Assembly (NCBI RefSeq): GCF_036365525.1
Contig: NC_090399.1
Span: forward strand, 42,440,430 to 42,504,429
Direction: 5' to 3'
Length of the DNA: 64,000 nt
Source of the DNA: Heterodontus francisci
Lineage: Eukaryota
The notes beneath the pieces were generated by a model. The model ran no database searches, was not told the DNA's origin, and worked only from the letters and a program-made list of their open reading frames with translations. The position numbers and the translations under genes were made by a program. Shown here one piece after another: positions 2,474 to 64,000 of this stretch (position 1 is its first letter; each line of letters begins with the position of its first letter).

Positions 2474-2476
<3 letters not shown>

Positions 2477-12794: not shown

Positions 12795-13042
12795 ACACCC
12801 AGCCAATCAGACCCAGTACCGCTGGGAGCCCCCGCCCACCACAAAAACAGCCAATCAGGCACAATGACAATAGGCGACCCCACCCACTATCCCCCAGCTA
12901 ACAGCCAATCAGATCCAGTCCCACTGGGAGACCCCGCCCACCACACAGCCAATCAGCCTCTGTCCCACTGGGAGACCCCGCCCACTATTCCCCAGCTAAC
13001 AGCCAATCAGACCTAGTCCCACTGGGAGACCCCGCCCACTGC
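12795..13042 (+). repeat. ~50-bp tandem repeat containing CCAAT and GC boxes (intron 2)
   Basis: AGCCAATCAG occurs 5 times (about 12801, 12849, 12903, 12947, 13001), alternating with CCCCGCCCAC four times and CCCCACCC once. Confidence 0.85.
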
Positions 13043-20131: not shown

Positions 20132-20392
20132 CCGCTGACTGGTTGGCTCGGGACATGAGGATCGGAATACGGGCCTTGAACTTCATCTCTCGCTCCTGTG
20201 CCAGGAACTTCTTCCGTGCCCAAGCCTCAGGCCCTTCACTCTCCACCATCCACTGCTCCCGAGGAATCAACTCCTTCCGATCGCTGTCGTACATAACAAA
20301 CTGGACATCGTCAACATAACCGACACCCACAAACTCCGGGAAACCAGGATTTGGAGTCATGGACGTGAAGAAATACCGGAGAGAGTGAGAGC
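20132..20392 (-). CDS. MHC class I heavy chain, exon 2 (alpha1 domain)
   Basis: Translates (G)[87 protein letters not shown], with class I motifs [14 protein letters not shown] and the N86 glycosylation site NQS. Acceptor tttcag| at 20393, donor |gtgagt at 20131; 261 bp, phase 1/1. Confidence 0.97.
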
Positions 20393-20400
20393 CTGAAAAA

Positions 20401-23400
20401 CAGAGAAAAAGACATCAGGACATGAACCCCAAACCACCAACCCCACACAGAGAGAGAAATCGGGACATGAACCTCAAACCACCAACCCCACACAGAGAGA
20501 GCATTCAGGACATGAACCCCAAAACACCAACCCCACACAGAGAGAGAAATCGGGACATGAACCTCAAACCACCAACCCCACAGAGACACATCAGGACATG
20601 AACCCCAAAACACAAACCCCTCACAGAGAAACATCAGGACATGAACCCCAAAACACCAACCCCACATATCGAGACACATCAGGACATGAACCCCAAAAAC
20701 CAACCCCTCACAGAGAAACATCAGGACATGAACCCCAAAATACCAACCCCACACAGAGAGAGACATCAGGACATGAACCCCAAAACACCAACCCCACACA
20801 GAGAAACATCAGGACATGAACCCCAAAACACCAACCCCTCACAGAGAAACATCAGGACATCAACCCCAAACAGACAGACATCAGGACATGAACCCACAAA
20901 CACCAACCCCACACAGAGACATCAGGACATGAACCCCAAAACACCAACCCCACACAGACAGACATCAGGACATGAACCCCAAAACACCAACCCCACACAG
21001 ACAGACATCAGGACATGAACCCCAAAACACCAACCCCAATCAGAGAGACGTCAGGACATGAACCCAGAAACACCAACCCCACACAGAGAGAGACATCAGG
21101 ACATGAACCCCAAAACACCAACCCCAATCAGAGAGACGTCAGGACATGAACCCAGAAACACCAACCCCACTCAGAGAGACACATCAGGACATGAACCCCA
21201 AAACACAAACCCCACACAGACAGACATCAGGACATGAACCCCAAAACATCAACCCCACACAGAGACATCAGGACATGAACCCCAAAACACAAACCCCACA
21301 CAGAGACACATCAGGACATGAACCCCAAAACACCAACCCCACACATCGAGACACATCAGGACATGAACCCCAAAACACCAACCCCACATATCGAGACACA
21401 TCAAGACATGAACCCCAAAACACCAACCCCACACATCGAGACACATCAGGACATGAATCCCAAAACACCAACCCCACACATCGAGACACATCAGGACATG
21501 AACCCCAAAACACCAACCCCTCACAGAGAAACATCAGGACATGAACCCCAAAACACCAACCCCACACATCGAGACACATCAGGACATGAACCCCAAAACA
21601 CAAACCCCACACATCGAGACACATGAGGACATGAACCCCAAAACACCAACCCCACACAGAGACACATCAGGACATGAACCCCAAAACACCAACCCCACAC
21701 AGAGACACATCAGGACATGAACCCCAAAACACCAACCCCACAAAAAGACATCAGGACATAAACCCCAAAACACCAACCCCACACAGAGAGACATCAGGAC
21801 ATAAACCCCAAAACACCAACCCCACAAAAAGACATCAGGACATAAACCCCAAAACACCAACCCCACACAGAGAGACATCAGGACATAAACCCCAAAACAC
21901 CAACCCCACACAGAGAGACATCAGGACATGAACCCAAAAACACCAGCCCCACACAGAGAGAGACATCAGAACATGAACCCCAAAGCACCAACCCCTCACA
22001 GAGAAACATCAGGACATGAACCCCAAAATACCAACCCCACACAGAGAGAGACATCAGGACATGAACCCCAAAACACCAACCCCACGCAGAGAGTCATCAG
22101 GACATGAACCCCAAAACACCAACCCCACACAGAGAGACATCAGGACATGAACCCCAAAACACCAACCCCACACAGAGAGACATCAGGACATGAACCCCAA
22201 AACACCAACCCCACACAGAGAGACATCAGGACATGAACCCCAAAACACCAAACCCACACAGAGAGACATCAGGACATGAACCCCAAAACACGAACCCCAC
22301 ACAGACAGACGTCAGGACATGAACCCAGAAACACCAACCCCACAGAGACACATCAGGACATGAACCTCAAACCACCAACCCCACACAGAGAGAGACATCA
22401 GGACATGAACCCCAAAACACCAACCCCACACAGAGAGAGACATCAGGAGATGAACACCAAAACACCAACCCCAATCAGAGAGACGTCAGGACATGAACCC
22501 AGAAACACCAACCCCACTCAGAGAGACACATCAGGACATGAACCCCAAAACACAAACCCCACACAGACAGACATCAGGACATGAACCCCAAAACATCAAC
22601 CCCACACAGAGACATCAGGACATGAACCCCAAAACACAAACCCCACACAGAGACACATCAGGACATGAACCCCAAAACACCAACCCCACACATCGAGACA
22701 CATCAGGACATGAACCCCAAAACACCAACCCCACATATCGAGACACATCAAGACATGAACCCCAAAACACCAACCCCACACATCGAGACACATCAGGACA
22801 TGAACCCCAAAACACCAACCCCACACATCGAGACACATCAGGACATGAACCCCAAAACACCAACCCCTCACAGAGAAACATCAGGACAAGAACCCCAAAA
22901 CACCAACCCCACACATCGAGACACATGAGGACATGAACCCCAAAACACCAACCCCACACAGAGAGACACATCAAGACATGAACCCCAAAACACCAACCCC
23001 ACACAACGAGACACATCAGGACATGAACCCCAAAACACAAACCCCACACAGAGACACATGAGGACATGAACCCCAAAACACCAACCCCACACAGAGAGAC
23101 ATCAGGACATGAACCCCAAAACACCAACCCCACACAGAGAGACACATCAAGACATGAACCCCAAAACACCAACCCCACACAGAGACACATCAAGACATGA
23201 ACCCCAAAACACCAACCCCACACATCGAGACACATCAAGACATGAACCCCAAAACACCAACCCCACACATCGAGACACATCAAGACATGAACCCCAAAAC
23301 ACCAACCCCACACATCGAGACACATCAAGACATGAACCCCAAAACACCAACCCCACACAGAGAGACATCAGGACATGAACCCCAAAACACCAACCCCACA

Positions 23401-26400
23401 CATCAAGACACATCAAGACATGAACCCCAAAACACCAACCCCACACAGAGAGACACATCAGGACATGATCCCCAAAACACCAACCCCACACATTGAGACA
23501 CATCAGGACATGAACCCCAAAACACCAACCCCACACAGAGAGACATCAGGACATGAACCCCAAAACACCAACCCCACACATCGAGACACATCAAGACATG
23601 AACCCCAAAACACCAACCCCACACAGAGAGACACATCAAGACATGAACCCCAAAACACCAACCCCACACATCGAGACACATGAGGACATGAACCCCAAAA
23701 CACCAACCCCACACAGAGACACATCAGGACATGAACCCCAAAACACCAACCCCACACAGAGAGACATCAGGATATGAACCCAAAACACCAACCCCACACA
23801 GAGACACATCAGGACATGAACCCCAAAACACCAACCCCACAAAAAGACATCAGGACATAAACCCCAAAACACCAACCCCACACAGAGAGACATCAGGACA
23901 TGAACCCCAAAACACCAACCCCACACAGAGAGACATCAGGACATGAACCCAAAAACACCAGCCCCACACAGAGAGAGACATCAGGACATGAACCCCAAAA
24001 CACCAACCCCTCACAGAGAAACATCAGGACATGAACCCCAAAACACCAACCCCACACAGAGAAACATCAGGACATGAACCCCAAAACACCAACCCCACAC
24101 AGAGAAACATCAGGACATGAACCCCAAAACACCAACCCCTCACAGAGAAACATCAGGACATCAACCCCAAACAGACAGACATCAGGACATGAACCCACAA
24201 ACACCAACCCCACACAGAGACATCAGGACATGAACCCCAAAACACCAACCCCACACAGACAGACATCAGGACATGAACCCCAAAACACCAACCCCACACA
24301 GACAGACATCAGGACATGAACCCCAAAACAGCAACCCCAATCAGAGAGACGTCAGGACATGAACCCAGAAACACCAACCCCACACAGAGAGAGACATCAG
24401 GACATGAACCCCAAAACACCAACCCCAATCAGAGAGACGTCAGGACATGAACCCAGAAACACCAACCCCACTCAGAGAGACACATCAGGACATGAACCCC
24501 AAAACACAAACCCCACACAGACAGACATCAGGACATGAACACCAAAACATCAACCCCACACAGAGACATCAGGACACGAACCCCAAAACACAAACCCCAC
24601 ACAGAGACACATCAGGACATGAACCCCAAAACACCAACCCCACACATCGAGACACATCAGGACATGAACCCCAAAACACCAACCCCACATATCGAGACAC
24701 ATCAAGACATGAACCCCAAAACAGCAACCCCACACATCGAGACACATCAGGACATGAACCCCAAAACACCAACCCCACACATCGAGACACATCAGGACAT
24801 GAACCCCAAAACACCAACCCCTCACAGAGAAACATCAGGACATGAACCCCAAAACACCAACCCCACACATCGAGACACATCAGGACATGAACCCCAAAAC
24901 ACAAACCCCACACATCGAGACACATGAGGACATGAACCCCAAAACACCAACCCCACACAGAGACACATCAGGACATGAACCCCAAAACACCAACCCCACA
25001 CAGAAACACATCAGGACATGAACCCCAAAACACCAACCCCACAAAAAGACATCAGGACATAAACCCCAAAACACCAACCCCACACAGAGAGACATCAGGA
25101 CATGAACCCCAAAACACCAACCCCACACAGAGAGACATCAGGACATGAACCCAAAAACACCAGCCCCACACAGAGAGAGACATCAGGACATGAACCCCAA
25201 AACACCAACCCCTCACAGAGAAACATCAGGACATGAACCCCAAAATACCAACCCCACACAGAGAGAGACATCAGGACATGAACCCCAAAACACCAACCCC
25301 ACGCAGAGAGTCATCAGGACATGAACCCCAAAACACCAACCCCACACAGAGAGACATCAGGACATGAACCCCAAAACACCAACCCCACACAGAGAGACAT
25401 CAGGACATGAACCCCAAAACACCAACCCCACACAGAGAGACATCAGGACATGAACCCCAAAACACCAAACTCACACAGAGAGACATCAGGACATGAACCC
25501 CAAAACACGAACCCCACACAGACAGACGTCAGGACATGAACCCAGAAACACCAACCCCACAGAGACACATCAGGACATGAACCTCAAACCACCAACCCCA
25601 CACAGAGAGAGACATCAGGACATGAACCCCAAAACACCAACCCCACACAGAGAGAGACATCAGGACATGAACACCAAAACACCAACCCCAATCAGAGAGA
25701 CGTCAGGACATGAACCCAGAAACACCAACCCCACTCAGAGAGACACATCAGGACATGAACCCCAAAACACAAACCCCACACAGACAGACATCAGGACATG
25801 AACCCCAAAACATCAACCCCACACAGAGACATCAGGACATGAACCCCAAAACACAAACCCCACACAGAGACACATCAGGACATGAACCCCAAAACACCAA
25901 CCCCACACATCGAGACACATCAGGACATGAACCCCAAAAGACCAACCCCACATATCGAGACACATCAAGACATGAACCCCAAAACACCAACCCCACACAT
26001 CGAGACACATCAGGACATGAACCCCAAAACACCAACCCCACACATCGAGACACATCAGGACATGAACCCCAAAACACCAACCCCTCACAGAGAAACATCA
26101 GGACAAGAACCCCAAAACACCAACCCCACACATCGAGACACATGAGGACATGAACCCCAAAACACCAACCCCACACAGAGAGACACATCAAGACATGAAC
26201 CCCAAAACACAAACCCCACACATCGAGACACATGAGGACATGAACCCCAAAACACCAACCCCACACATCGAGACACATCAGGACATGAACCCCAAAACAC
26301 AAACCCCACACAGAGACACATGAGGACATGAACCCCAAAACACCAACCCCACACAGAGAGACATCAGGACATGAACCCCAAAACACCAACCCCACACATC

Positions 26401-29400
26401 GAGACACATCAAGCCATGAACCCCAAAACACCAACCCCACACAGAGAGACATCAGGACATGAACCCCAAAACACCAACCCCACACATCGAGACACATCAA
26501 GACATGAACCCCAAAACACCAACCCCACACAGAGAGACACATCAGGACATGATCCCCAAAACACCAACCCCACACATTGAGACACATCAGGACATGAACC
26601 CCAAAACACCAACCCCACACAGAGAGACATCAGGACATGAACCCCAAAACACCAACCCCACACATCGAGACACATCAAGACATGAACCCCAAAACACCAA
26701 CCCCACACAGAGAGACACATCAAGACATGAACCCCAAAACACCAACCCCACACATCGAGACACATGAGGACATGAACCCCAAAACACCAACCCCACACAG
26801 AGACACATCAGGACATGAACCCCAAAACACCAACACCACACAGAGAGACATCAGGATATGAACCCAAAACACCAACCCCACACAGAGACACATCAGGACA
26901 TGAACCCCAAATCACCAACCCCACAAAAAGACATCAGGACATAAACCCCAAAACACCAACCGCACACAGAAAGACATCAGGACATGAACCCCAAAACAAC
27001 AACCCCACACAGAGAGACATCAGGACATGAACCCAAAAACACCAGCCCCACACAGAGAGAGACATCAGGACATGAACCCCAAAGCACCAACCCCTCACAG
27101 AGAAACATCAGGACATGAACCCCAAAATACCAACCCCACACAGAGAGAAACATCAGGACATGAACCCCAAAACACCAACCCCACACATCGAGACACATGA
27201 GGACATGAACCCCAAAACACCAACCCCACACAGAGACACATCAGGACATGAACCCCAAAACACCAACCCCACACAGAGAGACATCAGGATATGAACCCAA
27301 AACACCAACCCCACACAGAGACACATCAGGACATGAACCCCAAAACACCAACCGCACAAAAAGACATCAGGACATAAACCCCAAAACACCAACCCCACAC
27401 AGAGAGACATCAGGACATGAACCCCAAAACACCAACCCCACACAGAGAGACATCAGGACATGAACCCAAAAACACCAGCCCCACACAGAGAGAGACATCA
27501 GGACATGAACCCCAAAGCACCAACCCCTCACAGAGAAACATCAGGACATGAATCCAAAATACCAACCCCACACAAAGAGAGACATCAGGACATGAACCCC
27601 AAAACACCAACCCCACGCAGAGAGTCATCAGGACATGAACCCCAAAACACCAACCCCACACAGAGAGACATCAGGACATGAACCCCAAAACACCAACCCC
27701 ACACAGAGAGACATCAGGACATGAACCCCAAAACACCAACCCCACACAGAGAGACACATGAGGACATGAACCCCAAAACACCAACCCCACACATCGAGAC
27801 ACATCAGGACATGAACCCCAAAACACCAACCCCACACAGAGACACATGAGGACATGAACCCCAAAACACCAACCCCACACATCGAGAGACATCAGGACAT
27901 GAACCCCAAAACACCAACCCCACACAGAGAGACACATCAAGACATGAACCCCAAAACACCAACCCCACACATTGAGACACATCAGGACATGAACCCCAAA
28001 ACACCAACCCCACACAGAGAGACATCAGGACATGAACCCCAAAACACCAACCCCACACATCGAGACACATCAAGACATGAACCCCAAAACACCAACCCCA
28101 CACAGAGAGACACATCAAGACATGAACCCCAAAACACCAACCCCACACATCGAGACACATGAGGACATGAACCCCAAAACACCAACCCCACACAGAGACA
28201 CATCAGGACATGAACCCCAAAACACCAACCCCACACAGAGAGACATCAGGATATGAACCCAAAACAACAACCCCACACAGAGACACATCAGGACATGAAC
28301 CCCAAAACACCAACCCCACAAAAAGACATCAGGACATAAACCCCAAAACACCAACCCCACACAGAGAGACATCAGGACATGAACCCCAAAACACCAACCC
28401 CACACAGAGAGACATCAGGACATGAACCCAAAAACACCAGCCCCACACAGAGAGAGACATCAGGACATGAACCCCAAAGCACCAACCCCTCACAGAGAAA
28501 CATCAGGACATGAACCCCAAAATACCAACCCCACACAGAGAGAGACATCAGGACATGAACCCCAAAACACCAACCCCACACATCGAGACACATGAGGACA
28601 TGAACGCCAAAACACCAACCCCACACAGAGACACATCAGGACATGAACCCCAAAACACCAACCCCACAAAAAGACATCAGGACATAAACCCCAAAACACC
28701 AACCCCACACAGAGAGACATCAGGACATGAACCCCAAAACACCAACCCCACACAGAGAGACATCAGGACATGAACCCAAAAACACCAGCCCCACACAGAG
28801 AGAGACATCAGAACATGAACCCCAAAGCACCAACCCCTCACAGAGAAACATCAGGACATGAATCCAAAATACCAACCCCACACAGAGAGAGACATCAGGA
28901 CATGAACCCCAAAACACCAACCCCACGCAGAGAGTCATCAGGACATGAACCCCAAAACACCAACCCCACACAGAGAGACATCAGGACATGAACCCCAAAA
29001 CACCAACCCCACACAGAGAGACATCAGGACATGAACCCCAAAACACCAACCCCACACAGAGAGACATCAGGACATGAACCCCAAAACACCAACCCCACAC
29101 AGAGACACATCAGGACATGAACCCCAAAACACGAACACCACACAGACAGACATCAGGACATGAACCCCAAAACACCAACCCCAATCAGAGAGACGTCAGG
29201 ACATGAACCCAGAAACACCAACCCCACAGAGACACATCAGGACATGAACCTCAAACCACCAACCCCACACAGAGAGAGACATCAGGACATGAACCCCAAA
29301 ACACCAACCCCACACAGAGAGAGACATCAGGACATGAACACCAAAACACCAACCCCAATCAGAGAGACGTCAGGACATGAACCCAGAAACACCAACCCCA

Positions 29401-32400
29401 CTCAGAGAGACACATCAGGACATGAACCCCAAAACACAAACCCCACACAGACAGACATCAGGACATGAACCCCAAAACATCAACCCCACACAGAGACATC
29501 AGGACATGAACCCCAAAACACAAACCCCACACAGAGACACATCAGGACATGAACCCCAAAACACCAACCCCACACATCGAGACACATCAGGACATGAACC
29601 CCAAAACACCAACCCCACATATCGAGACACATCAAGACATGAACCCCAAAACACCAACCCCACACATCGAGACACATCAGGACATGAACCCCAAAACACC
29701 AACCCCACACATCGAGACACATCAGGACATGAACCCCAAAACACCAACCCCTCACAGAGAAACATCAGGACATGAACCCCAAAACACCAACCCCACACAT
29801 CGAGACACATCAGGACATGAACCCCAAAACACCAACCCCACACATCGAGACACATGAGGACATGAACCCCAAAACACCAACCCCACACAGAGAGACACAT
29901 CAAGACATGAACCCCAAAACACAAACCCCACACATCGAGACACATGAGGACATGAACCCCAAAACACCAACCCCACACATCGAGACACATCAGGACATGA
30001 ACCCCAAAACACAAACCCCACACAGAGACACATGAGGACATGAACCCCAAAACACCAACCCCACACAGAGAGACATCAGTACATGAACCCCAAAACACCA
30101 ACCCCACACAGAGAGACACATCAAGACATGAACCCCAAAACACCAACCCCACACAGAGACACATCAAGACATGAACCCCAAAACACCAACCCCACACATC
30201 GAGACACATCAAGACATGAACCCCAAAACACCAACCCCACACATCGAGACACATCAAGACATGAACCCCAAAACACCAACCCCACACATCGAGACACATC
30301 AAGACATGAACCCCAAAACACCAACCCCACACAGAGAGACATCAGGACATGAACCCCAAAACACCAACCCCACACAGAGAGACACATCAGGACATGATCC
30401 CCAAAACACCAACCCCACACATTGAGACACATCAGGACATGAACCCCAAAACACCAACCCCATACAGAGAGACATCAGGACATGAACCCCAAAACACCAA
30501 CCCCACACATCGAGACACATCAAGACATGAACCCCAAAACACCAACCCCACACAGAGAGACACATCAAGACATGAACCCCAAAACACCAACCCCAACACA
30601 GAGAGACACATCAGGACATGAACCCCAAAACACCAACCCCACACAGAGAGACACATCCGGACATGAACCCCAAAACACCAACCCCACACAGAGAGACATC
30701 AGGACATGAACCCCAAAACACCAACCCCACACAGAGACACATCAGGACATGAACCGCAAAACACCAACCCCACACATTGAGACACATCAGGACATGAACC
30801 CCAAAACACCAACCCCACATAGAGAAACATCAGGACATGAACCCCAAAACACCAACCCCACACATCGAGACACATCAAGACATGAACCCCAAAACACCAA
30901 CCCCACACAGAGAGACACATCAGGACATGATCCCCAAAACACCAACCCCACACATTGAGACACATCAGGACATGAACCCCAAAACACCAACCCCACACAG
31001 AGAGACATCAGGACATGAACCCCAAAACACCAACCCCACACATCGAGACACATCAAGACATGAACCCCAAAACACCAACCCCACACAGAGAGACACATCA
31101 AGACATGAACCCCAAAACACCAACCCCACACATCGAGACACATGAGGACATGAACCCCAAAACACCAACCCCACACAGAGACACATCAGGACATAAACCC
31201 CAAAACACCAACCCCACACAGAGAGACATCAGGATATGAACCCAAAACACCAACCCCACACAGAGACACATCAGGACATGAACCCCAAAACACCAACCCC
31301 ACAAAAAGACATCAGGACATAAACCCCAAAACACCAACCCCACACAGAGAGACATCAGGACATGAACCCCAAAACACCAACCCCACACAGAGAGACATCA
31401 GGACATGAACCCAAAAACACCAGCCCCACACAGAGAGAGACATCAGGACATGAACCCCAAAGCACCAACCCCTCACAGAGAAACATCAGGACATGAACCC
31501 CAAAATACCAACCCCACACAGAGAGAAACATCAGGACATGAACCCCAAAACACCAACCCCACACATCGAGACACATGAGGACATGAACCCCAAAACACCA
31601 ACCCCACACAGACACACATCAGGACATGAACCCCAAAACACCAACCCCACACAGAGAGACATCAGGATATGAACCCAAAACACCAACCCCACACAGAGAC
31701 ACATCAGGACATGAACCCCAAAACACCAACCCCACTAAAAGACATCAGGACATAAACCCCAAAACACCAACCCCACACAGAGAGACATCAGGACATGAAC
31801 CCCAAAACACCAACCCCACACAGAGAGACATCAGGACATGAACCCAAAAACACCAGCCCCACCCAGAGAGAGACATCAGGACATGAACCCCAAAGCACCA
31901 ACCCCTCACAGAGAAACATCAGGACATGAATCCAAAATACCAACCCCACACAGAGAGAGACATCAGGACATGAACCCCAAAACACCAACCCCACGCAGAG
32001 AGTCATCAGGACATGAACCCCAAAACACCAAACCCACACAGAGAGACATCAGGACATGAACCCCAAAACACCAACCCCACACAGAGAGACATCAGGACAT
32101 GAACCCCAAAACACCAACCCCACACAGAGAGACACATGAGGACATGAACCCCAAAACACCAACCCCACACATCGAGACACATCAGGACATGAACCCCAAA
32201 ACACAAACCCCACACAGAGACACATGAGGACATGAACCCCAAAACACCAACCCCACACATCGAGAGACATCAGGACATGAACCCCAAAACACCAACCCCA
32301 CACAGAGAGACACATCAAGACATGAACCCCAAAACACCAACCCCACACATCGAGACACATCAAGACATGAACCCCAAAACACCAACCCCACACAGAGAGA

Positions 32401-35400
32401 CATCAGGACATGAACCCCAAAACACCAACCCCACACATCGAGACACATCAAGACATGAACCCCAAAACACCAACCCCACACAGAGAGACACATCAGGACA
32501 TGATCCCCAAAACACCAACCCCACACATTGAGACACATCAGGACATGAACCCCAAAACACCAACCCCACACAGAGAGACATCAGGACATGAACCCCAAAA
32601 CACCAACCCCACACATCGAGACACATCAAGACATGAACCCCAAAACACCAACCCCACACAGAGAGACACATCAAGACATGAACCCCAAAACACCAACCCC
32701 ACACATCGAGACACATGAGGACATGAACCCCAAAACACCAACCCCACACAGAGACACATCAGGACATGAACCCCAAAACACCAACCCCACACAGAGAGAC
32801 ATCAGGATATGAACCCAAAACAACAACCCCACACAGAGACACATCAGGACATGAACCCCAAAACACCAACCCCACAAAAAGACATCAGGACATAAACCCC
32901 AAAACACCAACCCCACACAGAGAGACATCAGGACATGAACCCCAAAACACCAACCCCACACAGAGAGACATCAGGACATGAACCCAAAAACACCAGCCCC
33001 ACACAGAGAGAGACATCAGGACATGAACCCCAAAGCACCAACCCCTCACAGAGAAACATCAGGACATGAACCCCAAAATACCAACCCCACACAGAGAGAG
33101 ACATCAGGACATGAACCCCAAAACACCAACCCCACACATCGAGACACATGAGGACATGAACGCCAAAACACCAACCCCACACAGAGACACATCAGGACAT
33201 GAACCCCAAAACACCAACCCCACACAGACAGACATCAGGATATGAACCCAAAACACCAACCCCACACAGAGACACATCAGGACATGAACCCCAAAACACC
33301 AACCCCACAAAAAGACATCAGGACATAAACCCCAAAACACCAACCTCACACAGAGAGACATCAGGACATGAACCCCAAAACACCAACCCCACACAGAGAG
33401 ACATCAGGACATGAACCCAAAAACACCAGCCCCACACAGAGAGAGACATCAGGACATGAACCCCAAAGCACCAACCCCTCACAGAGAAACATCAGGACAT
33501 GAATCCAAAATACCAACCCCACACAGAGAGAGACATCAGGACATGAACCCCAAAACACCAACCCCACGCAGAGAGTCATCAGGACATGAACCCCAAAACA
33601 CCAACCCCACACAGGGAGACATCAGGACATGAACCCCAAAACACCAACCCCACACAGAGAGACATCAGGACATGAACCCCAAAACACCAACCCCACACAG
33701 AGAGACATCAGGACATGAACCCCAAAACACCAACCCCACACAGAGAGACATCAGGACATGAACCCCAAAACACGAACCCCACACAGACAGACATCAGGAC
33801 ATGAACCCCAAAACACCAACCCCAATCAGAGAGACGTCAGGACATGAACCCAGAAACACCAACCCCACAGAGACACATCAGGACATGAACCTCAAACCAC
33901 CAACCCCACACAGAGAGAGACATCAGGACATGAACCCCAAAACACCAACCCCACAGAGAGAGAGACATCAGGACATGAACCCCAAAACACCAACCCCAAT
34001 CAGAGAGACGTCAGGGCATGAACCCAGAAACACCAACCCCACTCAGAGAGACACATCAGGACATGAACCCCAAAACACAAACCCCACACAGACAGACATC
34101 AGGACATGAACCCCAAAACATCAACCCCACACAGAGACATCAGGACATGAACCCCAAAACACAAACCCAACACAGAGACACATCAGGACATGAACCCCAA
34201 AACACCAACCCCACATATCGAGACACATCAAGACATGAACCCCAAAACACCAACCCCACACATCGAGACACATCAGGACATGAACCCCAAAACACCAACC
34301 CCACATATCGAGACACATCAAGACATGAACCCCAAAACACCAACCCCACACATCGAGACACATCAGGACATGAACCCCAAAACACCAACCCCACACATCA
34401 AGACACATCAGGACATGAACCCCAAAACACCAACCCCTCACAGAGAAACATCAGGACATGAACCCCAAAACACCAACCCCACACATCGAGACACATCAGG
34501 ACATGAACCCCAAAACACCAACCCCACACATCGAGACACATGAGGACATGAACCCCAAAACACCAACCCCACACAGAGAGACACATCAAGACATGAACCC
34601 CAAAACACAAACCCCACACATCGAGACACATGAGGACATGAACCCCAAAACACCAACCCCACACATCGAGACACATCAGGACATGAACCCCAAAACACAA
34701 ACCCCACACAGAGACACATGAGGACATGAACCCCAAAACACCAACCCCACACAGAGAGACATCAGGACATGAACCCCAAAACACCAACCCCACACAGAGA
34801 GACACATCAAGACATGAACCCCAAAACACCAACCCCACACAGAGACACATCAAGACATGAACCCCAAAACACCAACCCCACACATCGAGACACATCAAGA
34901 CATGAACCCCAAAACACCAACCCCACACATCGAGACACATCAAGACATGAACCCCAAAACACCAACCCCACACATCGAGACACATCAAGACATGAACCCC
35001 AAAACACCAACCCCACACAGAGAGACATCAGGACATGAACCCCAAAACACCAACCCCACACATCGAGACACATCAAGACATGAACCCCAAAACACCAACC
35101 CCACACAGAGAGACACATCAGGACATGATCCCCAAAACACCAACCCCACACATTGAGACACATCAGGACATGAACCCCAAAACACCAACCCCACACAGAG
35201 AGACATCAGGACATGAACCCCAAAACACCAACCCCACACATCGAGACACATCAAGACATGAACCCCAAAACACCAACCCCACACAGAGAGACACATCAAG
35301 ACATGAACCCCAAAACACCAACCCCACACAGAGAGACACATCAGGACATGAACCCCAAAACACCAACCCCACACAGAGAGACACATCCGGACATGAACCC

Positions 35401-50400: not shown

Positions 50401-53400
50401 GGACATGAACCCCAAAACACCAACACCTCACAGAGAGACATCAGGACGTGAACCCCAAAACACCAACATCACACATCGAGACACATCAGGACATGAACCC
50501 CAAAACACCAACCCCACACAGAGAAACATCAGGACATGAACCCCAAAACACCAACCCCACACAGAGAAACATCAGGACATGAACCCCAAAACACCAACCC
50601 CACACAGAGAAACATCAGGACATGAACCCCAAAACACCAACCCCACACAGAGAAACATCAGGACATGAACCCCAAAACACCAACCCCACACAGAGAAACA
50701 TCAGGACATGAACCCCAAAACACCAACCCCACACAGAGAGACATCAGGACATGAACCCCAAAACACCAACCCCACACATCGAGACACATCAGGACATGAA
50801 TCCCAAAACGCCAACCCCACATATCGAGACACATCAGGACATGAACCCCAAAACACTAACCCCACACAGAGAGACACATCAGGACATGAACCCCAAAACA
50901 CCAACCCCACACAGAGACACATCAGGATATGAACCCCAAAACACCAACCCCACGCAGAGACACATCAGGGAATGAACCCCAAAACACCAACACGAGAGAG
51001 ACATCAGGACATGAACCCCAAAACACCAGCCCCACCAGAGAGACATCAGGATATGAACCCCAAAACACCAACCCCACGCAGAGTCATCAGGACATGAACC
51101 CCAAAACACCAACCCCACACAGAGACACATCAGTTCATGAACCCCAAAACACCAACCCCACGGAAAGACATCAGGACGTGAACCCCAAAACACCAACACA
51201 AGAGAGACATCAGGACATGAACCCCAAAACGCCAACCACACACAGAGAGACACATCAGGACATGAACACCAAAACACCAACAACACACAGAGAGACATCA
51301 GGATATGAACCCAAAACACCAACACTACAGAGATAAAGACATCAGGACATGAACCCCAAAACACCAACACAAGAGAAACATCAGGACATGAACCCCAAAA
51401 CACCAACCCCACACAGAGAGGCATCAGGACATGAACCCCAAAACACCAACACAAGAGAGACACATCAGGACTTGAACCCCAAAACACCAACACAAGAGAA
51501 ATATCAGGACATGAACCCAAAACACCAACCCCACACATCGAGACACATCAGGACATGAACCCCAAAACACCAACACAAGAGAGACATCAGGACATGAACC
51601 CCAAAACACCAACCCCACACAGAGACATCAGGACATGAAGCCCAAAACACCAACACAAGAGAGACATCAGGACATGAACCCCAAAACACCAACACAAGAG
51701 AGACATCAGGACAAGAACCCCAAAACACCAACACAAGAGAGACATCAGGACATGAACCCCAAAACACCAACCCCACACAGAGAGACTTCAGGACATGAAC
51801 CCCAAAACACCAACACAAGAGAGACATCAGGACATGAACCCCAAAACACCAACCCCACGCAGAGAGGCATCAGGACATGAACCCCAAAACACCAACACAA
51901 GAGAGACATCAGGACATGAACCCCAAAACACCAACCCCACACAGAGAGGCATCAGGACATGAACCCCAAAACACCAACACAAGAGAGACATCAGGACATG
52001 AACCCCAAAACACCAACCCCACACAGAGAGGCATCAGGACATGAACCCCAAAACACCAACACAAGAGAGACATCAGGACATGAACCCCAAAACACCAACA
52101 CAAGAGAGACATCAGGACATGAACCCCAAAACACCAACACAAGAGACACATCAGGACATGAATCCCAAAACGCCAACCCCACATATCGAGACACATCAGG
52201 ACATGAACCCCAAAACACTAACCCCACACAGAGAGACACATCAGGACATGAACCCCAAAACACCAACCCCACACAGAGAGACATCAGGATCTGAACCCCA
52301 AAACACCAACCCCACGCAGAGACACATCAGGGCATGAACCCCAAAACACCAACACGAGAGAGACATCAGGACATGAACCCCAAAACACCTACCCCACCAG
52401 AGAGACATCAGGATATGAACCCCAAAACACCAACCCCACAAAGAGAGACACATCAGGACATGAACCCCAAAACACCAACCCCACCAGAGAGACATCAGGA
52501 TATGAACCCCAAAACACCAACCCCACGCAGAGAGACATCAGGACGTGAACCCCAAAACACCAACATCACACATCGAGACACATCAGGACATGAACCCCAA
52601 AACACCAACCCCACCAGAGAGACATCAGGATATGAACCCCAAAACACCAACCCCACAAAGAGAGACACATCAGGACATGAACCCCAAAACACCAACCCCA
52701 CCAGAGAGACATCAGGATATGGACACCAAAACACCAACCCCACGCAGAGAGACATCAGGATATGAACCCCAAAACACCAACACCACTCGGAGACACATCA
52801 GGACATGAACCCCAAAACCCAACCCCACAGAAAGACATCTGGACATGAACCCCAAAACACCAACCCCACGCAGAGGCATCAGGACATGAACCCCAAAACA
52901 CCAACCCCACACAGAGACACATCAGCTCATGAACCCCAAAACACCAACCCCACGGAAAGACATCAGGACGTGAACCCCAAAACACCAACACAAGAGAGAC
53001 ATCAGGACATGAACCCCAAAACGCCAACCACACACAAAGAGACACATCAGGACATGAACCCCAAAACACCAACAACACACAGAGAGACATCAGGATATGA
53101 ACCCAAAACACCAACACTACAGAGAGAAAGACATCAGGACATGAACCCCAAAACACCAACACAAGAGAAACATCAGGACATGAACCCCAAAACACCAACC
53201 CCACACAGAGAGACATCAGGACATGAACCCGAAAACACCAACACCGCACAGAGACACATCAGGACTTGAACCCCAAAACACCAACACAAGAGAAACATCA
53301 GGACATGAACCCAAAACACCAACCCCACACATCAACACACATCAGGACATGAACCCCAAAACACCAACACAAGAGAGACATCAGGACATGAACCCCAAAA

Positions 53401-56400
53401 CACCAACCCCACACAGAGAGACATCAGGACATGAACCCCAAAACACCAACACAAGAGAGACATCAGGACATGAACCCCAAAACACCAACACAAGAGAGAC
53501 ATCAGGACATGAACCCCAAAACACCAACCCCACACAGAGACATCAGGACATGAACCCCAAAACACCAACACAAGAGAGACATCAGGACATGAACCCCAAA
53601 ACACCAACCCCACGCAGAGAGGCATCAGGACATGAACCCCAAAACACCAACACAAGAGAGACATCAGGACATGAACCCCAAAACACCAACCCCACACAGA
53701 GAGGCATCAGGACATGAACCCCAAAACACCAACACAAGAGAGACATCAGGACATGAACCCCAAAACACCAACCCCACACAGAGAGGCATCAGGACATGAA
53801 CCCCAAAACACCAACACAAGAGAGACATCAGGACATGAACCCCAAAACACCAACCCCACGCAGAGAGGCATCAGGACATGAACCCCAAAACACCAACCCC
53901 ACACATCGAGACACATCAGGACATGAATCCCAAAACGCCAACCCCACATATCGAGACACATCAGGACATGAACCCCAAAACACCAACCCCACGCAGAGAC
54001 ACATCAGGGCATGAACCCCAAAACACCAACACGAGAGAGACATCAGGACATGAACCCCAAAACACCAACCCCACCAGAGAGACATCAGGATATGAACCCC
54101 AAAACACCAACCCCACAAAGAGAGACACATCAGGACATGAACCCCAAAACACCAACCCCACCAGAGAGACATCAGGATATGAACCCCAAAACACCAACCC
54201 CACGCAGAGAGACATCAGGATATGAACCCCAAAACACCAACACCACTCGGAGACACATCAGGACATGAACCCCAAAACCCAAACCCACAGAAAGACATCT
54301 GGACATGAACCCCAAAACACCAACCCCACGCAGAGTCATCAGGACATGAACCCCAAAACACCAACCCCACACAGAGACACATCAGTTCATGAACCCCAAA
54401 ACACCAACCCCACGGAAAGACATCAGGACGTGAACCCCAAAACACCAACACAAGAGAGACATCAGGACATGAAACCCAAAACGCCAACCACACACAGAGA
54501 GACACATCAGGACATGAACCCCAAAACACCAACACCACACAGAGAGACATCAGGATATGAACCCAAAACACCAACACTACAGAGAGAAAGACATCAGGAC
54601 ATGAACCCCAAAACACCAACACAAGAGAGACATCAGGACATGAACCCCAAAACACCAACCCCACAGAGAGACACATCAGGACATGAACCCCAAAACACTA
54701 ACCCCACACAGAGAGACATCAGGACATGAACCCCAAAACACCAACCCCACACAGAGACACATGAGGACATGAACCCCAAAACACCAACCCCACACAGAGA
54801 GAGACATCAGGATATGAACCCCAACACACCAACATCGCACAGAGAGACATCAGGATATGAACCCCAAAACACCAACCCCACCCAGAGACACATCAGGACA
54901 TGAACCCCAAAACACCAACCCCACAGAAAAACATCAGGACGTGAACCCCAAATCACCAACACCACACAGAGAAACATCAGGACATGAACCCCAAAACACC
55001 AACCCCACAGAGAGAAAGACATCAGGACATGAACCCCAAAACACCAACCCCACAGAAAAACATCAGGACGGAACCCCAAAACACCAACCCCACAGAGAGA
55101 AAGACATCAGGACATGAACCCCAAAACACCAACACCACACATCGAGACACATCAGGACATGAACCCCAAAACACCAACCCCACAGAGAGACACATCAGGA
55201 CATGAACCCCAAAACACTAACCCCACACAGAGAGACATCAGGACATGAACCCCAAAACACCAACCCCACACAGAGACACACATCAGGACATGAAACCCAA
55301 AACACCAACCCCACGGAGAGAGACATCAGGACATGAACCCCAAAACACCAACCCCACACAGAGAGACATCAGGACATGAACCCCAAAACACCAACCCCAC
55401 ACAGAGAGACATCAGGACATGAACCCCAAAACACCAACCCCACACAGAGAGACATCAGGACATGAACCCCAAAACACTAACCCCACACAGAGAGACATCA
55501 GGACATGAACCCCAAAACACTAACCCCACACAGAGAGACATCAGGACATGAACCCCAAAACACCAACCCCACACAGAGAGACATCAGGACATCAACCCCA
55601 ATACACCAACCCCACACAGAGAGACATCAGGACATGAACCCCAAAACACTAACCCCACACAGAGACACACATCAGGACATGAAACCCAAAACACTAACCC
55701 CACACAGAGAGACACATCAGGACATGAACCCCAAAACACCAACCCCACAGAGAGACACATCAGGACATGAACCCCAAAACACCAACCCCACACAGAGAGA
55801 CACATCAGGACATGAACCCCAAAACACCAACCCCACACAGAGAGACATCAGGACATGAACCCCAAAACACCAAACCCACACAGAGAGACATCAGGACATG
55901 AACCCCAAAACACCAACCCCAGATAGACACATCAGGACATGAACCCCAAAACACCAACCCCACACAGAGACACATCAGGACATGAACCCCAAAACACCAA
56001 CCCCACAGAAAAACATCAGGACATGAACCCCAAAACACCAACCCCACAGAGAGACACATCAGGACATGAACCCCAAAACACCAACCCCAGATAGACACAT
56101 CAGGACATGAACCCCAAAACACCAACCCCACAGAAAAACATCAGGACATGAACCCCAAAACACCAACCCCACAAAGAGAGACACATCAGGACATGAACCC
56201 CAAAACACCAACCCCACCAGAGAGACATCAGGATATGAACCCCAAAACACCAACACCACTCGGAGACACATCAGGACATGAACCCCAAAACCCAACCCCA
56301 CAGAAAGACATCTGGACATGATGCCCAAAACACCAACCCCACACAGAGTCATCAGGACATGAACCCCAAAACACCAACCCCACACAGAGACACATTAGTT

Positions 56401-59400
56401 CATGAACCCCAAAACACCAACCCCACGGAGAGACATCAGTTCATGAACCCCAAAACACCAACCCCACGGAAAGACATCAGGACATGAACCCCAAAACACC
56501 AACACAAGAGAGACATCAGGACATGAACCCCAAAACACCAACCCCACACAGAGAGACATCAGGACATGAACCCCAAAACACCAAACCCACACAGAGAGAG
56601 ACATCAGGACATGAACCCCAAAACACAAACCCCACACAGAGAGAGACATCAGGACATGAACCCCAAAACACCAACCACACACAGAGAGAGACATCAGGAC
56701 ATGAACCCCAAAACACCAACACCACACAGAGAGACATCAGGACATGAACCCCAAAACACCAACTCCACACAGAGAGCCATCAGGACATGAACCCCAAAAC
56801 ACAAACCCCACACAGAGAGAGACATCAGGACATGAACCCCAAAACACCAACCCCACAGAAAGACATCAGGACGTGAACCCCAAAACACCAACACCTCACA
56901 GAGAAACATCAGGACGTGAACCCCAAAACACCAACCCCACACAGAGAAACATCAGGACATGAACCCCAAAACACCAACCCCACACAGAGACATCAGGACA
57001 TGAACCCCAAAACACCAACCCCACACAGAGAAACATCAGGACATGAACCCCAAAACACCAACACCTCACAGAGAGACATCAGGACGTGAACCCCAAAACA
57101 CCAACATCACACATCGAGACACATCAGGACATGAACCCCAAAACACCAACCCCACACAGAGAAACATCAGGACATGAACCCCAAAACACGAACCCCACAC
57201 AGAGAAACATCAGGACATGAACCCCAAAACACCAACCCCACACAGAGAAACATCAGGACATGAACCCCAAAACACCAACCCCACACAGAGAAACATCAGG
57301 ACATGAACCCCAAAACACCAACCCCACACAGAGAAACATCAGGACATGAACCCCAAAACACCAACCCCACACAGAGAGACATCAGGACATGAACCCCAAA
57401 ACACCAACCCCACACATCGAGACACATCAGGACATGAACCCCAAAACACTAACCCCACACAGAGAGACACATCAGGACATGAACCCCAAAACACCAACCC
57501 CACACAGAGACACATCAGGATATGAACCCCAAAACACCAACCCCACGCAGAGACACATCAGGGCATGAACCCCAAAACACCAACACGAGAGAGACATCAG
57601 GACATGAACCCCAAAACACCAACCCCACCAGAGAGACATCAGGATATGAACCCCAAAACACCAACCCCACAAAGAGAGACACATCAGGACATGAACCCCA
57701 AAACACCAACCCCACCAGAGAGACATCAGGATATGAACCCCAAAACACCAACCCCACGCAGAGAGACATCAGGATATGAACCCCAAAACACCAACACCAC
57801 TCGGAGACACATCAGGACATGAACCCCAAAACCCAAACCCACAGAAAGACATCTGGACATGAACCCCAAAACACCAACCCCACGCAGAGTCATCAGGACA
57901 TGAACCCCAAAACACCAACCCCACACAGAGACACATCAGTTCATGAACCCCAAAACACCAACCCCACGGAAAGACATCAGGACGTGAACCCCAAAACACC
58001 AACACAAGAGAGACATCAGGACATGAACCCCAAAACGCCAACCACACACAGAGAGACACATCAGGATATGAACCCAAAACACCAACACTACAGAGATAAA
58101 GACATCAGGACATGAACCCCAAAACACCAACACAAGAGAAACATCAGGACATAAACCACAAAACACCAACCCCACACAGAGAGGCATCAGGACATGAACC
58201 CCAAAACACCAACACAAGAGAGACACATCAGGACTTGAACCCCAAAACACCAACACAAGAGAAACATCAGGACATGAACCCAAAACACCAACCCCACACA
58301 TCGAGACACATCAGGACATGAACCCCAAAACACCAACACAAGAGAGACATCAGGACATGAACCCCAAAACACCAACCCCACACAGAGAGACATCAGGACA
58401 TGAACCCCAAAACACCAACACAAGAGAGACATCAGGACATGAACCCCAAAACACCAACACAAGAGAGACATCAGGACAAGAACCCCAAAACACCAACACA
58501 AGAGAGACATCAGGACATGAACCCCAAAACACCAACCCCACCAGAGAGACATCAGGATATGAACCCCAAAACACCAACCCCACGCAGAGAGACATCAGGA
58601 TATGAACCCCAAAACACCAACACCACTCGGAGACACATCAGGACATGAACCCCAAAACCCAAACCCACAGAAAGACATCTGGACATGAACCCCAAAACAC
58701 CAACCCCACGCAGAGTCATCAGGACATGAACCCCAAAACACCAACCCCACACAGAGACACATCAGTTCATGAACCCCAAAACACCAACCCCACGGAAAGA
58801 CATCAGGACGTGAACCCCAAAACACCAACACAAGAGAGACATCAGGACATGAACCCCAAAACGCCAACCACACACAGAGAGACACATCAGGATATGAACC
58901 CAAAACACCAACACTACAGAGATAAAGACATCAGGACATGAACCCCAAAACACCAACACAAGAGAAACATCAGGACATAAACCCCAAAACACCAACCCCA
59001 CACAGAGAGGCATCAGGACATGAACCCCAAAACACCAACACAAGAGAGACACATCAGGACTTGAACCCCAAAACACCAACACAAGAGAAACATCAGGACA
59101 TGAACCCAAAACACCAACCCCACACATCGAGACACATCAGGACATGAACCCCAAAACACCAACACAAGAGAGACATCAGGACATGAACCCCAAAACACCA
59201 ACCCCACACAGAGAGACATCAGGACATGAACCCCAAAACACCAACACAAGAGAGACATCAGGACATGAACCCCAAAACACCAACACAAGAGAGACATCAG
59301 GACAAGAACCCCAAAACACCAACACAAGAGAGACATCAGGACATGAACCCCAAAACACCAACCCCACACAGAGAGACATCAGGACATGAACCCCAAAACA

Positions 59401-62400
59401 CCAACACAAGAGAGACATCAGGACATGAACCCCAAAACACCAACCCCACGCAGAGAGGCATCAGGACATGAACCCCAAAACACCAACACAAGAGAGACAT
59501 CAGGACATGAACCCCAAAACACCAACCCCACACAGAGAGGCATCAGGACATGAACCCCAAAACACCAACACAAGAGAGACATCAGGACATGAACCCCAAA
59601 ACACCAACCCCACACAGAGAGGCATCAGGACATGAACCCCAAAACACCAACACAAGAGAGACATCAGGACATGAACCCCAAAACACCAACACAAGAGAGA
59701 CATCAGGACATGAACCCCAAAACACCAACACAAGAGACACATCAGGACATGAATCCCAAAACGCCAACCCCACATATCGAGACACATCAGGACATGAACC
59801 CCAAAACACTAACCCCACACAGAGAGACACATCAGGACATGAACCCCAAAACACCAACCCCACACAGAGAGACATCAGGATATGAACCCCAAAACACCAA
59901 CCCCACGCAGAGACACATCAGGGCATGAACCCCAAAACACCAACACGAGAGAGACATCAGGACATGAACCCCAAAACACCTACCCCACCAGAGAGACATC
60001 AGGATATGAACCCCAAAACACCAACCCCACAAAGAGAGACACATCAGGACATGAACCCCAAAACACCAACCCCACCAGAGAGACATCAGGATATGAACCC
60101 CAAAACACCAACCCCACGCAGAGAGACATCAGGACGTGAACCCCAAAACACCAACATCAAACATCGAGACACATCAGGACATGAACCCCAAAACACCAAC
60201 CCCACCAGAGAGACATCAGGATATGAACCCCAAAGCACCAACCCCACAAAGAGAGACACATCAGGACATGAACCCCAAAACACCAACCCCACCAGAGAGA
60301 CATCAGGATATGAACCCCAAAACACCAACCCCACCAGAGAGACATCAGGATATGAACCCCAAAACACCAACCCCACAAAGAGAGACACATCAGGACATGA
60401 ACCCCAAAACACCAACCCCACCAGAGAAACATCAGGACATGAACCCCAAAACACCAACCCCACACAGAGAGGCATCAGGACATGAACCCCAAAACACCAA
60501 CACAAGAGAGACATCAGGACATGAACCCGAAAACACCAACACTGCACAGAGACACATCAGGACTTGAACCCCAAAACACCAACACAAAAGAAACATCAGG
60601 ACATGAACCCAAAACACCAACCGCACACATCAAGACACATCAGGACATGAACCCCAAAACACCAACACAAGAGAGACATCAGGACATGAACCCCAAAACA
60701 CCAACCCCACACAGAGAGACATCAGGACATGAACCCCAAAACACCAACACAAGAGAGACATCAGGACATGAACCCCAAAACACCAACACAAGAGAGACAT
60801 CAGGACATGAACCCCAAAACACCAACACAAGAGAGACATCAGGACATGAACCCCAAAACACCAACCCCACACAGAGAGACATCAGGACATGAACCCCAAA
60901 ACACCAACACAAGAGAGACATCAGGACATGAACCCCAAAACACCAACCCCACGCAGAGAGGCATCAGGACATGAACCCCAAAACACCAACACAAGAGAGA
61001 CATCAGGACATGAACCCCAAAACAACAACCCCACACAGAGAGGCATCAGGACATGAACCCCAAAACACCAACACAAGAGAGACATCAGGACATGAACCCC
61101 AAAACACCAACCCCACACAGAGAGGCATCAGGACATGAACCCCAAAACACCAACACAAGAGAGACATCAGGACATGAACCCCAAAACACCAACACAAGAG
61201 AGACATCAGGACATGAACCCCAAAACACCAACCCCACACAGAGAAACATCAGGACATGAACCCCAAAACACCAACCCCACACAGAGAAACATCAGGACAT
61301 GAACCCCAAAACACCAACCCCACACAGAGAGACATCAGGACATGAACCCCAAAACACCAACCCCACACATCGAGACACATCAGGACATGAACCCCAAAAC
61401 ACTAACCCCACACAGAGAGACACATCAGGACATGAACCCCAAAACACCAACCCCACACAGAGACACATCAGGATATGAACCCCAAAACACCAACCCCACG
61501 CAGAGACACATCAGGGCATGAACCCCAAAACACCAACACGAGAGAGACATCAGGACATGAACCCCAAAACACCAACCCCACCAGAGAGACATCAGGATAT
61601 GAACCCCAAAACACCAACCCCACAAAGAGAGACACATCAGGACATGAACCCCAAAACACCAACCCCACCAGAGAGACATCAGGATATGAACCCCAAAACA
61701 CCAACCCCACGCAGAGAGACATCAGGATATGAACCCCAAAACACCAACACCACTCGGAGACACATCAGGACATGAACCCCAAAACCCAAACCCACAGAAA
61801 GACATCTGGACATGAACCCCAAAACACCAACCCCACGCAGAGTCATCAGGACATGAACCCCAAAACACCAACCCCACACAGAGACACATCAGTTCATGAA
61901 CCCCAAAACACCAACCCCACGGAAAGACATCAGGACGTGAACCCCAAAACACCAACACAAGAGAGACATCAGGACATGAACCCCAAAACGCCAACCACAC
62001 ACAGAGAGACACATCAGGATATGAACCCAAAACACCAACACTACAGAGATAAAGACATCAGGACATGAACCCCAAAACACCAACACAAGAGAAACATCAG
62101 GACATAAACCACAAAACACCAACCCCACACAGAGAGGCATCAGGACATGAACCCCAAAACACCAACACAAGAGAGACACATCAGGACTTGAACCCCAAAA
62201 CACCAACACAAGAGAAACATCAGGACATGAACCCAAAACACCAACCCCACACATCGAGACACATCAGGACATGAACCCCAAAACACCAACACAAGAGAGA
62301 CATCAGGACATGAACCCCAAAACACCAACCCCACACAGAGAGACATCAGGACATGAACCCCAAAACACCAACACAAGAGAGACATCAGGACATGAACCCC

Positions 62401-64000
62401 AAAACACCAACACAAGAGAGACATCAGGACAAGAACCCCAAAACACCAACACAAGAGAGACATCAGGACATGAACCCCAAAACACCAACCCCACCAGAGA
62501 GACATCAGGATATGAACCCCAAAACACCAACCCCACGCAGAGAGACATCAGGATATGAACCCCAAAACACCAACACCACTCGGAGACACATCAGGACATG
62601 AACCCCAAAACCCAAACCCACAGAAAGACATCTGGACATGAACCCCAAAACACCAACCCCACGCAGAGTCATCAGGACATGAACCCCAAAACACCAACCC
62701 CACACAGAGACACATCAGTTCATGAACCCCAAAACACCAACCCCACGGAAAGACATCAGGACGTGAACCCCAAAACACCAACACAAGAGAGACATCAGGA
62801 CATGAACCCCAAAACGCCAACCACACACAGAGAGACACATCAGGATATGAACCCAAAACACCAACACTACAGAGATAAAGACATCAGGACATGAACCCCA
62901 AAACACCAACACAAGAGAAACATCAGGACATAAACCCCAAAACACCAACCCCACACAGAGAGGCATCAGGACATGAACCCCAAAACACCAACACAAGAGA
63001 GACACATCAGGACTTGAACCCCAAAACACCAACACAAGAGAAACATCAGGACATGAACCCAAAACACCAACCCCACACATCGAGACACATCAGGACATGA
63101 ACCCCAAAACACCAACACAAGAGAGACATCAGGACATGAACCCCAAAACACCAACCCCACACAGAGAGACATCAGGACATGAACCCCAAAACACCAACAC
63201 AAGAGAGACATCAGGACATGAACCCCAAAACACCAACACAAGAGAGACATCAGGACAAGAACCCCAAAACACCAACACAAGAGAGACATCAGGACATGAA
63301 CCCCAAAACACCAACCCCACACAGAGAGACATCAGGACATGAACCCCAAAACACCAACACAAGAGAGACATCAGGACATGAACCCCAAAACACCAACCCC
63401 ACGCAGAGAGGCATCAGGACATGAACCCCAAAACACCAACACAAGAGAGACATCAGGACATGAACCCCAAAACACCAACCCCACACAGAGAGGCATCAGG
63501 ACATGAACCCCAAAACACCAACACAAGAGAGACATCAGGACATGAACCCCAAAACACCAACCCCACACAGAGAGGCATCAGGACATGAACCCCAAAACAC
63601 CAACACAAGAGAGACATCAGGACATGAACCCCAAAACACCAACACAAGAGAGACATCAGGACATGAACCCCAAAACACCAACACAAGAGACACATCAGGA
63701 CATGAATCCCAAAACGCCAACCCCACATATCGAGACACATCAGGACATGAACCCCAAAACACTAACCCCACACAGAGAGACACATCAGGACATGAACCCC
63801 AAAACACCAACCCCACACAGAGAGACATCAGGATATGAACCCCAAAACACCAACCCCACGCAGAGACACATCAGGGCATGAACCCCAAAACACCAACACG
63901 AGAGAGACATCAGGACATGAACCCCAAAACACCTACCCCACCAGAGAGACATCAGGATATGAACCCCAAAACACCAACCCCACAAAGAGAGACACATCAG
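20401..64000 (+). repeat. Giant 39-45-bp minisatellite array (about 1000 units, >43.6 kb) in MHC intron 1
   Basis: Consensus ACATCAGGACATGAACCCCAAAACACCAACCCCACACAGAGAG, uninterrupted to the window end; length variants of 39/41/43/45 bp; higher-order duplications are visible in the ORF track. Confidence 0.99.

Follow-up and report, generated by a model that had tools for sequence, protein, structure and literature searches.

The horn shark Heterodontus francisci carries an MHC class I gene whose alpha-1 exon adjoins a minisatellite that runs to the end of the 64,000-nucleotide stretch of DNA analysed here (the window). This locus raises the question of where such an array came from, whether its length is real and whether it does anything for the gene. 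The reading that we favour, with a probability of about 0.65, is a locally born splice-edge minisatellite of the 'sequence stuttering' type, grown by nested duplication and tolerated.

The host gene and its first intron

The gene lies on the minus strand, with exons 2–7 spanning 2176–20392 (Table 1). Exons 2–6 agree with the H. francisci RefSeq model XP_067865799.1 at all residues but one, at an exon boundary, and this model opens with a leader of 16 residues, which the window lacks. Between the window gene and a twin (XP_067865801/803) there are two residue differences, located in alpha-3 and in the transmembrane part, with identical alpha-1 and alpha-2 proteins; twin and window gene each have their own RefSeq model with a leader. 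The host gene groups with nurse-shark Gici-UBA AAC60347 (clade of 19 rows, support 100/99), a sequence that Verissimo et al. 2023 label in their supplement (PMC10751288) as UBA, a multicopy non-classical lineage, and at least six horn-shark paralogues lie on one 74.5-Mb record. Judged by its sequence, the host is intact and belongs to the non-classical MHC class I genes of sharks (UBA); it has in common with the elasmobranch class Ib UBA lineage the Gici-UBA grouping, the multicopy cluster and the near-identical twin; UBA is defined as a multicopy cluster flanked by c4 and rxrb, and these flanks fall outside the window. The word 'intron' is absent from the main text of Verissimo et al. 2023, where such an intron structure is undescribed (PMC10751288).

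Run X5, presumably RNA and from the sample that also gave X1, has contigs identical to exon 2 that continue into exon 3. A loose contig end at 20395 in the same run decodes as the leader end GGVSA, and X9, from organism B, has the same leader end. Because the leader is joined to exon 2 in these contigs, the array most likely occupies intron 1 of the host gene, as the original prediction had placed it, with spliced contigs that fit the window copy or its twin equally well. The window-identical exon-2 contigs in X5 have a depth of 3,614–3,907, a figure that does not rank expression. The leader end seen in X5 does not occur within the window, and a six-frame scan for a leader exon hidden inside the array gave a best score of only 36/76.

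Tandem Repeats Finder (TRF) applied to the 64-kb window returned a period of 43 with 1,015 copies and 89% match over 20410–63994, reaching the window end. The array length of at least 43.6 kb is thus a lower bound, cut by the window end, and exon 1 lies outside the window. Splitting the array into units gave 1,012 pieces (two of them double units) in 248 distinct variants, mostly 39, 41, 43 or 45 bp long. Measured against the commonest unit, 99.7% of them differ by no more than 20% in edit distance. A blastn comparison of 1–20400 with the array returned no match and hence detected no transposable element (TE) or other foreign insert, in keeping with the predicted run of about 1,000 units free of TEs. 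The sense (minus) strand is indeed GT-rich and strongly asymmetric (G 36%, T 45%, C 13.5%, A 5.8%; GC skew +0.46, AT skew −0.77). The claim of two GGGG runs per unit holds for 699 of the 1,012 units and fails for 294 with one run and 19 with none; exact matches to TGGGGTTGGTGTTTTGGGG number 571 in the array. Two-run units make up 82 of 102 near exon 2 and 44 of 94 at the far end of the array, over which distance 39-mers missing one GGGG run rise from 0/102 to 33/94. We found no coding role for the array, whose longest stop-free frame is 295 aa, with 353–393 stops per frame.

Table 1 Coordinates of gene and repeat features in the window
Feature	Position	Strand	Description
Exon 7	2176..2223	-	with stop codon after SDKGESSSSSSANA; coordinates read by eye
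Intron-6 AG/AGAGAC microsatellite	2265..2496	-	pyrimidine-rich sense strand, exception to G-rich rule
Exon 6 (cytoplasmic)	2610..2642	-	model match
Intron-5 33-mer array	2753..3003	-	G-rich sense strand
Exon 5 (transmembrane)	3203..3310	-	model match
Intron-4 35-mer array	3335..3725	-	beside exon-5 acceptor, interrupted by insertions
Exon 4 (alpha-3)	11704..11967	-	87/87 aa identical to XP_067865799.1
Intron-3 32-mer array	12119..12519	-	built from the final 11 nt of exon 3 and its donor GTGAG (exon stuttering)
Exon 3 (alpha-2)	12509..12781	-	90/90 aa identical to XP_067865799.1
Intron-2 44/54-mer array	12800..13040	-	last unit also leads CTGAT into exon-3 acceptor
Intron-2 42-mer array, 3′ part	13253..13687	-	TRF
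Intron-2 42-mer array, 5′ part	19560..19948	-	same family as 13253-13687; about 5.8 kb of other, TE-like DNA between
Exon 2 (alpha-1)	20132..20392	-	85/85 aa identical to XP_067865799.1
Exon-2 acceptor	20393..20418	-	CTGAT (branch-point-like), pyrimidine tract and CAG; modified last repeat unit
Intron-1 minisatellite	20410..64000	-	1,014 or more 39-45-bp units; sense strand rich in G/T, duplications nested, continues past window end
Youngest duplication	57250..64000	.	2,798 bp exact, offset 3,953 (57250-60047 and 61203-64000); cut by window end

Origin of the repeat unit

Read on the sense strand, every unit closes with CCTGATG and a CT/GT tract, and the final unit turns into the exon-2 acceptor TTTTTCAG, in which CTGAT is the putative branch point. 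The motif CTRAY occurs 897 times in the array versus 37 in shuffles and AG 141 times versus 920, the consensus unit having no AG at all. The array thus multiplies the end of intron 1 that holds the putative branch point: each unit copies this region and its pyrimidine tract minus the acceptor AG, and the last unit serves the real exon-2 acceptor. Eight complete decoy acceptors persist in the array, and there is no sign of selection against new AG (9/13 AG-creating substitutions seen, versus 58/81 overall). Recursively spliced giant introns carry YAG/GTRAG ratchet points; the 43.6 kb of array seen contain none, and no GGTRAG donor. As the consensus unit lacks AG and the array lacks a GGTRAG donor, we propose that the spliceosome would remove the intron by exon definition, leaving the array tolerated, not selected.

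Splice edges elsewhere in the gene carry repeats too. TRF arrays occur in all six introns between coding exons, mostly at exon edges, and cover 2–73% of introns 2–5; large TE-filled stretches stand alongside the arrays in introns 2 and 4. The exon-3 edge with its GTGAG is present in 10 copies with at most two mismatches, the real edge included, and nowhere else in the window. The origin of these repeats is local, in that units derive from adjacent splice edges and have no copies elsewhere within the window. The sense strand is G-rich in five of seven intronic families (skew +0.37 to +0.75), whereas the intron-4 family has a skew of 0.00, intron 6 is CT-rich, and the TE and ERV parts stand at −0.15 and −0.04. 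With tandem repeats in every intron here, and with elasmobranch class Ib gene models spanning about 4–99 kb (13 class Ib rows listed, from white shark and sawfish), the mammalian intron 1 of 0.1 kb that the original prediction took as its baseline is misleading.

The same unit adjoins exon 2 of another class I gene, as a search suggested with the original prediction might have found. Record 4 of X1 (733 bp, depth 13.6) is 86% alike over 20306–20404, then unlike, yet enters the same 43-mer unit. Decoded by hand, it matches XP_067882272, a type labelled UAA-2 in the supplement of Verissimo et al. (PMC10751288); UAA-2-type and UBA sequences are 56% alike over alpha-1+2. In organism C, another species, record 9 of X16 runs as one contig across the exon-2 start, the acceptor and the array unit, with a summed depth of about 11,000 on the unit versus about 4. 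Most of exon 2 is without X16 coverage, a gap that carries no evidential weight. Since the unit lies beside exon 2 in a second lineage (one contig) and in another species (one contig), its seed is either old and ancestral to the class I lineages or has spread among class I genes by conversion, with one or two contigs for each case.

Summed depth puts the units in the thousands in two species, which might instead point to a dispersed satellite family that landed beside exon 2, with an origin unrelated to the splice site. We consider this very improbable, given that the unit corresponds to the branch and pyrimidine stretch of the acceptor itself, that its placement is identical at three class I exon-2 junctions, and that its 19-nt core has no copy with four or fewer mismatches in 1–20390.

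Growth and strand asymmetry of the array

Twelve duplicate blocks with 0–1.1% substitutions cover 84% of the array. They form nested multi-unit duplications, with blocks of 0.8–7 kb at offsets of 0.8–11.5 kb, while 115 unit variants are unique and scattered across the whole array. This pattern points to repeated unequal exchange or conversion, not to a collapsed or stretched assembly. The splice-edge array gained its length by nested duplication of such multi-unit blocks, the youngest of them identical, and unequal exchange or gene conversion would change that length, perhaps aided by transcription over the G-rich non-template strand (R-loops). Hairpin-driven instability was considered and rejected, DNA folding of three units giving only about 0 to −1.2 kcal/mol. 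The predicted recent expansion stands for the length, given the near-identical blocks, and not for the unit, which is common to lineages and species: on sequence evidence, the array length is young and the unit old. Freedom from inserts fits youth, because TEs do enter similar arrays, the intron-2 42-mer and intron-4 35-mer arrays both being split.

The exact duplication at the window end could also have arisen if assembly had inflated the length, an alternative that we weighed together with 5′ truncation of this copy, its RefSeq leader then belonging to a neighbour. Leaders are identical among several horn-shark UBA models, so that a model could have borrowed one, and the leader is absent in 9 of 34 shark or ray matches. 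The other 11 duplicate blocks, however, are shorter or diverged, and the unique variants are spread over the array. An X1 contig spanning 20193–20492 has zero differences from the window and indicates that the exon-2/array junction is real, although X1 may be the assembly's own sample. Summed X1 contig depth is 10,957 on the first unit versus 3.6–4.6 on the flank, a ratio of about 2,400–3,000 units; summed depth is no true copy number, and the ratio exceeds the 1,014 units in the window, which speaks against inflation. Leader-bearing models for both the window gene and its twin argue against truncation. Inflation or truncation is accordingly improbable.

In immunoglobulin switch regions, tandem repeats extend over long transcribed intronic tracts, the non-template strand is G-rich and AGCT/WGCW hotspots for AID are dense. 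The array is like them in its long tandem repeats within a transcribed intron and its G-rich non-template strand, but it is nearly devoid of the hotspots (AGCT 1 in 43.6 kb versus 54 in shuffles, WGCW 23 versus 552), has no paired downstream region in view and sits in an MHC gene. The predicted 'switch-region-like' character is contradicted by these counts. A strong G-quadruplex (G4) tendency, also predicted, finds little in the array: neither a loop limit of 7 nt nor one of 12 nt yields a single motif of four G3+ runs, because G-runs are spaced 10–11 and 23–27 nt, and there are 35 two-tetrad motifs. The G4Hunter mean is 0.71 and the maximum 1.84, with 17.3% of 25-nt windows at 1.2 or more and none at 2 or more. 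The strand bias fits predicted R-loop-type motifs: our own coding of the QmRLFS rules found 702 GGGG-N1-10-GGGG sites, and behind 494 of these the sequence continues with 40% G or more. R-loop formation on the array is a prediction, and 36% G is modest.

Strand bias, R-loop-initiation-type motifs and the windows with G4Hunter scores of at least 1.2 would all suit a hypothetical regulatory VNTR of G4/R-loop and switch-region-like character, under selection for damping expression or attracting AID. Introns of bird dot chromosomes, more than 70% tandem repeat, favour G4 motifs on the coding strand (bioRxiv 2025.10.17.683159). Yet AGCT and WGCW fall far below chance, canonical G3 motifs are absent, and the 39-mer lacking one GGGG run has spread to 33 of 94 far-end units, which indicates that the two-run motif is not being preserved. 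Regulatory selection of this kind is therefore quite improbable, and the switch and G4 framing should be dropped. The gene probably tolerates the array as a passenger and does not use it as a regulatory device.

Avian stuttering and possible leader exchange

Hron et al. 2026 (PMC12954441) describe sequence stuttering on avian dot chromosomes as local imperfect tandems that stay within single introns, some of which copy an exon edge together with its splice site; lengths vary among chickens, and the maxima in the exon-stuttering set are 23,555 bp and 44 copies. The shark array is alike in its imperfect tandems of tens of bases, less than 20% from the consensus in 99.7% of units, in its origin, local as far as the window goes, in its confinement between exons and in leaving the exons intact. 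Several features set it apart. At no less than 43.6 kb and 1,014 copies it exceeds the maxima of the avian exon-stuttering set, its unit is common to paralogues and species whereas related bird species have independent repeats (PMC12954441), and large TE-filled stretches coexist with arrays in introns 2 and 4. Avian lengths vary among individuals; in the shark array the internal duplications represent past instability only. The intron-3 repeat is of the exon-edge kind, yet its exon part is 11 nt, against 20–187 bp in the hits of Hron et al. (PMC12954441), and would for that reason fail their screen. Membership in the stuttering class is incomplete, the unit being common to species, unlike in birds; this sharing may reflect selection or conversion.

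Hron et al. describe stuttering as unseen in other vertebrates save gerbil genes, and the word 'shark' is absent from their main text (PMC12954441). Sharks have been described as having long introns and tandem-repeat-rich small chromosomes (PMC10620051; bioRxiv 2025.06.08.657570). In the open-licence literature we found neither this array nor any stuttering in sharks described. Chicken chromosome 16 carries the MHC. Chromosome 16 is also among the dot chromosomes (PMC12954441).

The original prediction further proposed that the array could promote swapping of promoter/leader modules between class I paralogues. Our leader comparison took in 42 class I proteins from elasmobranchs, at 16 residues each and through 19 representatives, leaving out leaderless models, sevengill shark, chimaera, rays except sawfish and three unplaced proteins. 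Leader similarity over the representatives showed a same-order effect (p=0.029) and a stronger lineage effect (p=0.002), in a post hoc test that uses author-assigned lineage labels, includes an 'E' pair that is no supported clade, and ignores kinship. Horn-shark leaders are 14–16/16 alike across lineages versus 8–9/16 to other-order orthologues (P0211 versus P0071/P0210, with alpha-1+2 at 81–83%; P0230 versus P0242), and bamboo-shark P0242 bears the UAA-type leader of its own order (14–15/16). P0230 and P0242 are UniRef/nr entries labelled class I protein or antigen.

Such likeness within an order, together with the presence of one unit at two lineages so far apart in alpha-1+2, would be expected if the shared intron-1 repeat were a homology platform for exchange or homogenising of promoter and leader modules while groove exons are kept. 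Teleost class I alleles recombine via a long intron 2 (PMC6523485), and that of teleost classical class I genes is likewise very long and could serve exchange between alleles or loci; it splits alpha-1 from alpha-2 and its shuffling is demonstrated, whereas the shark array splits leader from alpha-1 and shuffling is only hinted at (PMC6523485). Several results tell against the platform: lineage outweighs order in a post hoc test on 16 residues, the horn-shark leader type is found in sawshark and sevengill shark too and may thus be ancestral, and UBA leaders outside horn shark are only 9–11/16 alike to same-order class I (four pairs). No exchange is tied to the array. We regard such a platform as unlikely. 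Leader swapping between class I genes is a weak circumstantial lead, without support for a role of the array.

A wider extension of the splice-edge reading, which we hold tentatively and think unlikely, is that stuttering is not peculiar to birds and is an old property of the MHC-bearing region, in sharks too, with an ancient splice-edge repeat in intron 1 that stays similar among class I lineages and species and is the crossover platform by which promoter/leader modules are homogenised while groove exons diverge.

Two features make the locus worth following up, namely stuttering-like anatomy in the MHC gene of a shark and a repeat unit shared class-I-wide. If the array is merely neutral, it is a caution against judging shark MHC genes by mammalian intron sizes. 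A class-I-wide intron-1 repeat could account for leaderless shark class I models (9/34 matches), and it offers a concrete site at which to seek 5′ module exchange among class I genes. The large shark array is itself a place to measure instability, and a shark MHC gene with stuttering anatomy makes the link between instability and the MHC region testable across jawed vertebrates.

Intron 4 and intron 2 elements

Intron 4 of the host gene, a minus-strand MHC class I UBA gene, carries a degraded endogenous retrovirus in which Pfam searches matched fragments of protease, reverse transcriptase, RNase H and integrase zinc domains, lying in separate frames, and in which gag scored under the Pfam cut-off. 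The two LTRs of this provirus share only 79% identity. A TG...CA-ended element, probably a solo LTR, lies within the 35-mer array of the same intron and is followed by one further fragment of a 35-mer unit and then by the provirus. In intron 2, the inverted LINE-like copies are 83% identical across 638 bp.

Repeats and transposable-element remnants, in window positions
Feature	Location	Position	Strand	Evidence
G-rich 33-mer repeat	3′ of stop codon	1383-1460		
TG...CA-ended element	Intron 4, within 35-mer array	3725-4295		
Degraded endogenous retrovirus	Intron 4	4290-11460	+ (antisense to host gene)	Pfam domains, LTR pair
Proviral LTRs	Intron 4	4313-4778 and 10979-11460		
Tandem repeat, 91 bp × 3.6 copies	Intron 2, head of TE block	14623-14939		
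LINE-like 3′ ends, inverted pair	Intron 2	16408-17033 and 18879-19514		

The 3′ end of the host gene

Because a GT donor (2171-2176) follows the stop codon, the G-rich 33-mer repeat beyond it probably lies within a 3′-UTR intron.

Domain composition and 5′ ends of class I genes

Two Heptranchias perlo class I proteins (P0029 and P0032) combine an alpha-3 domain of the long UAA-2-lineage type with a UBA-like leader and alpha-1, and are possible domain mosaics. The model of the horn-shark UAA-2-type gene (P0115, XP_067882272) starts with a translated tandem repeat of 18-residue period (residues 5-100), pointing to a further minisatellite at the 5′ end of this second class I gene. Contigs of sequencing run X9 (organism B) showed an additional 5′ loose end at window position 20394, distinct from the leader, which could represent an alternative first exon or a cryptic exon. 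Of the 34 class I models from sharks or rays among the protein-search matches, 9 have no leader, and the majority of these 9 begin within alpha-1. Intron 1 may often defeat the assembly or annotation of class I genes in sharks and rays.
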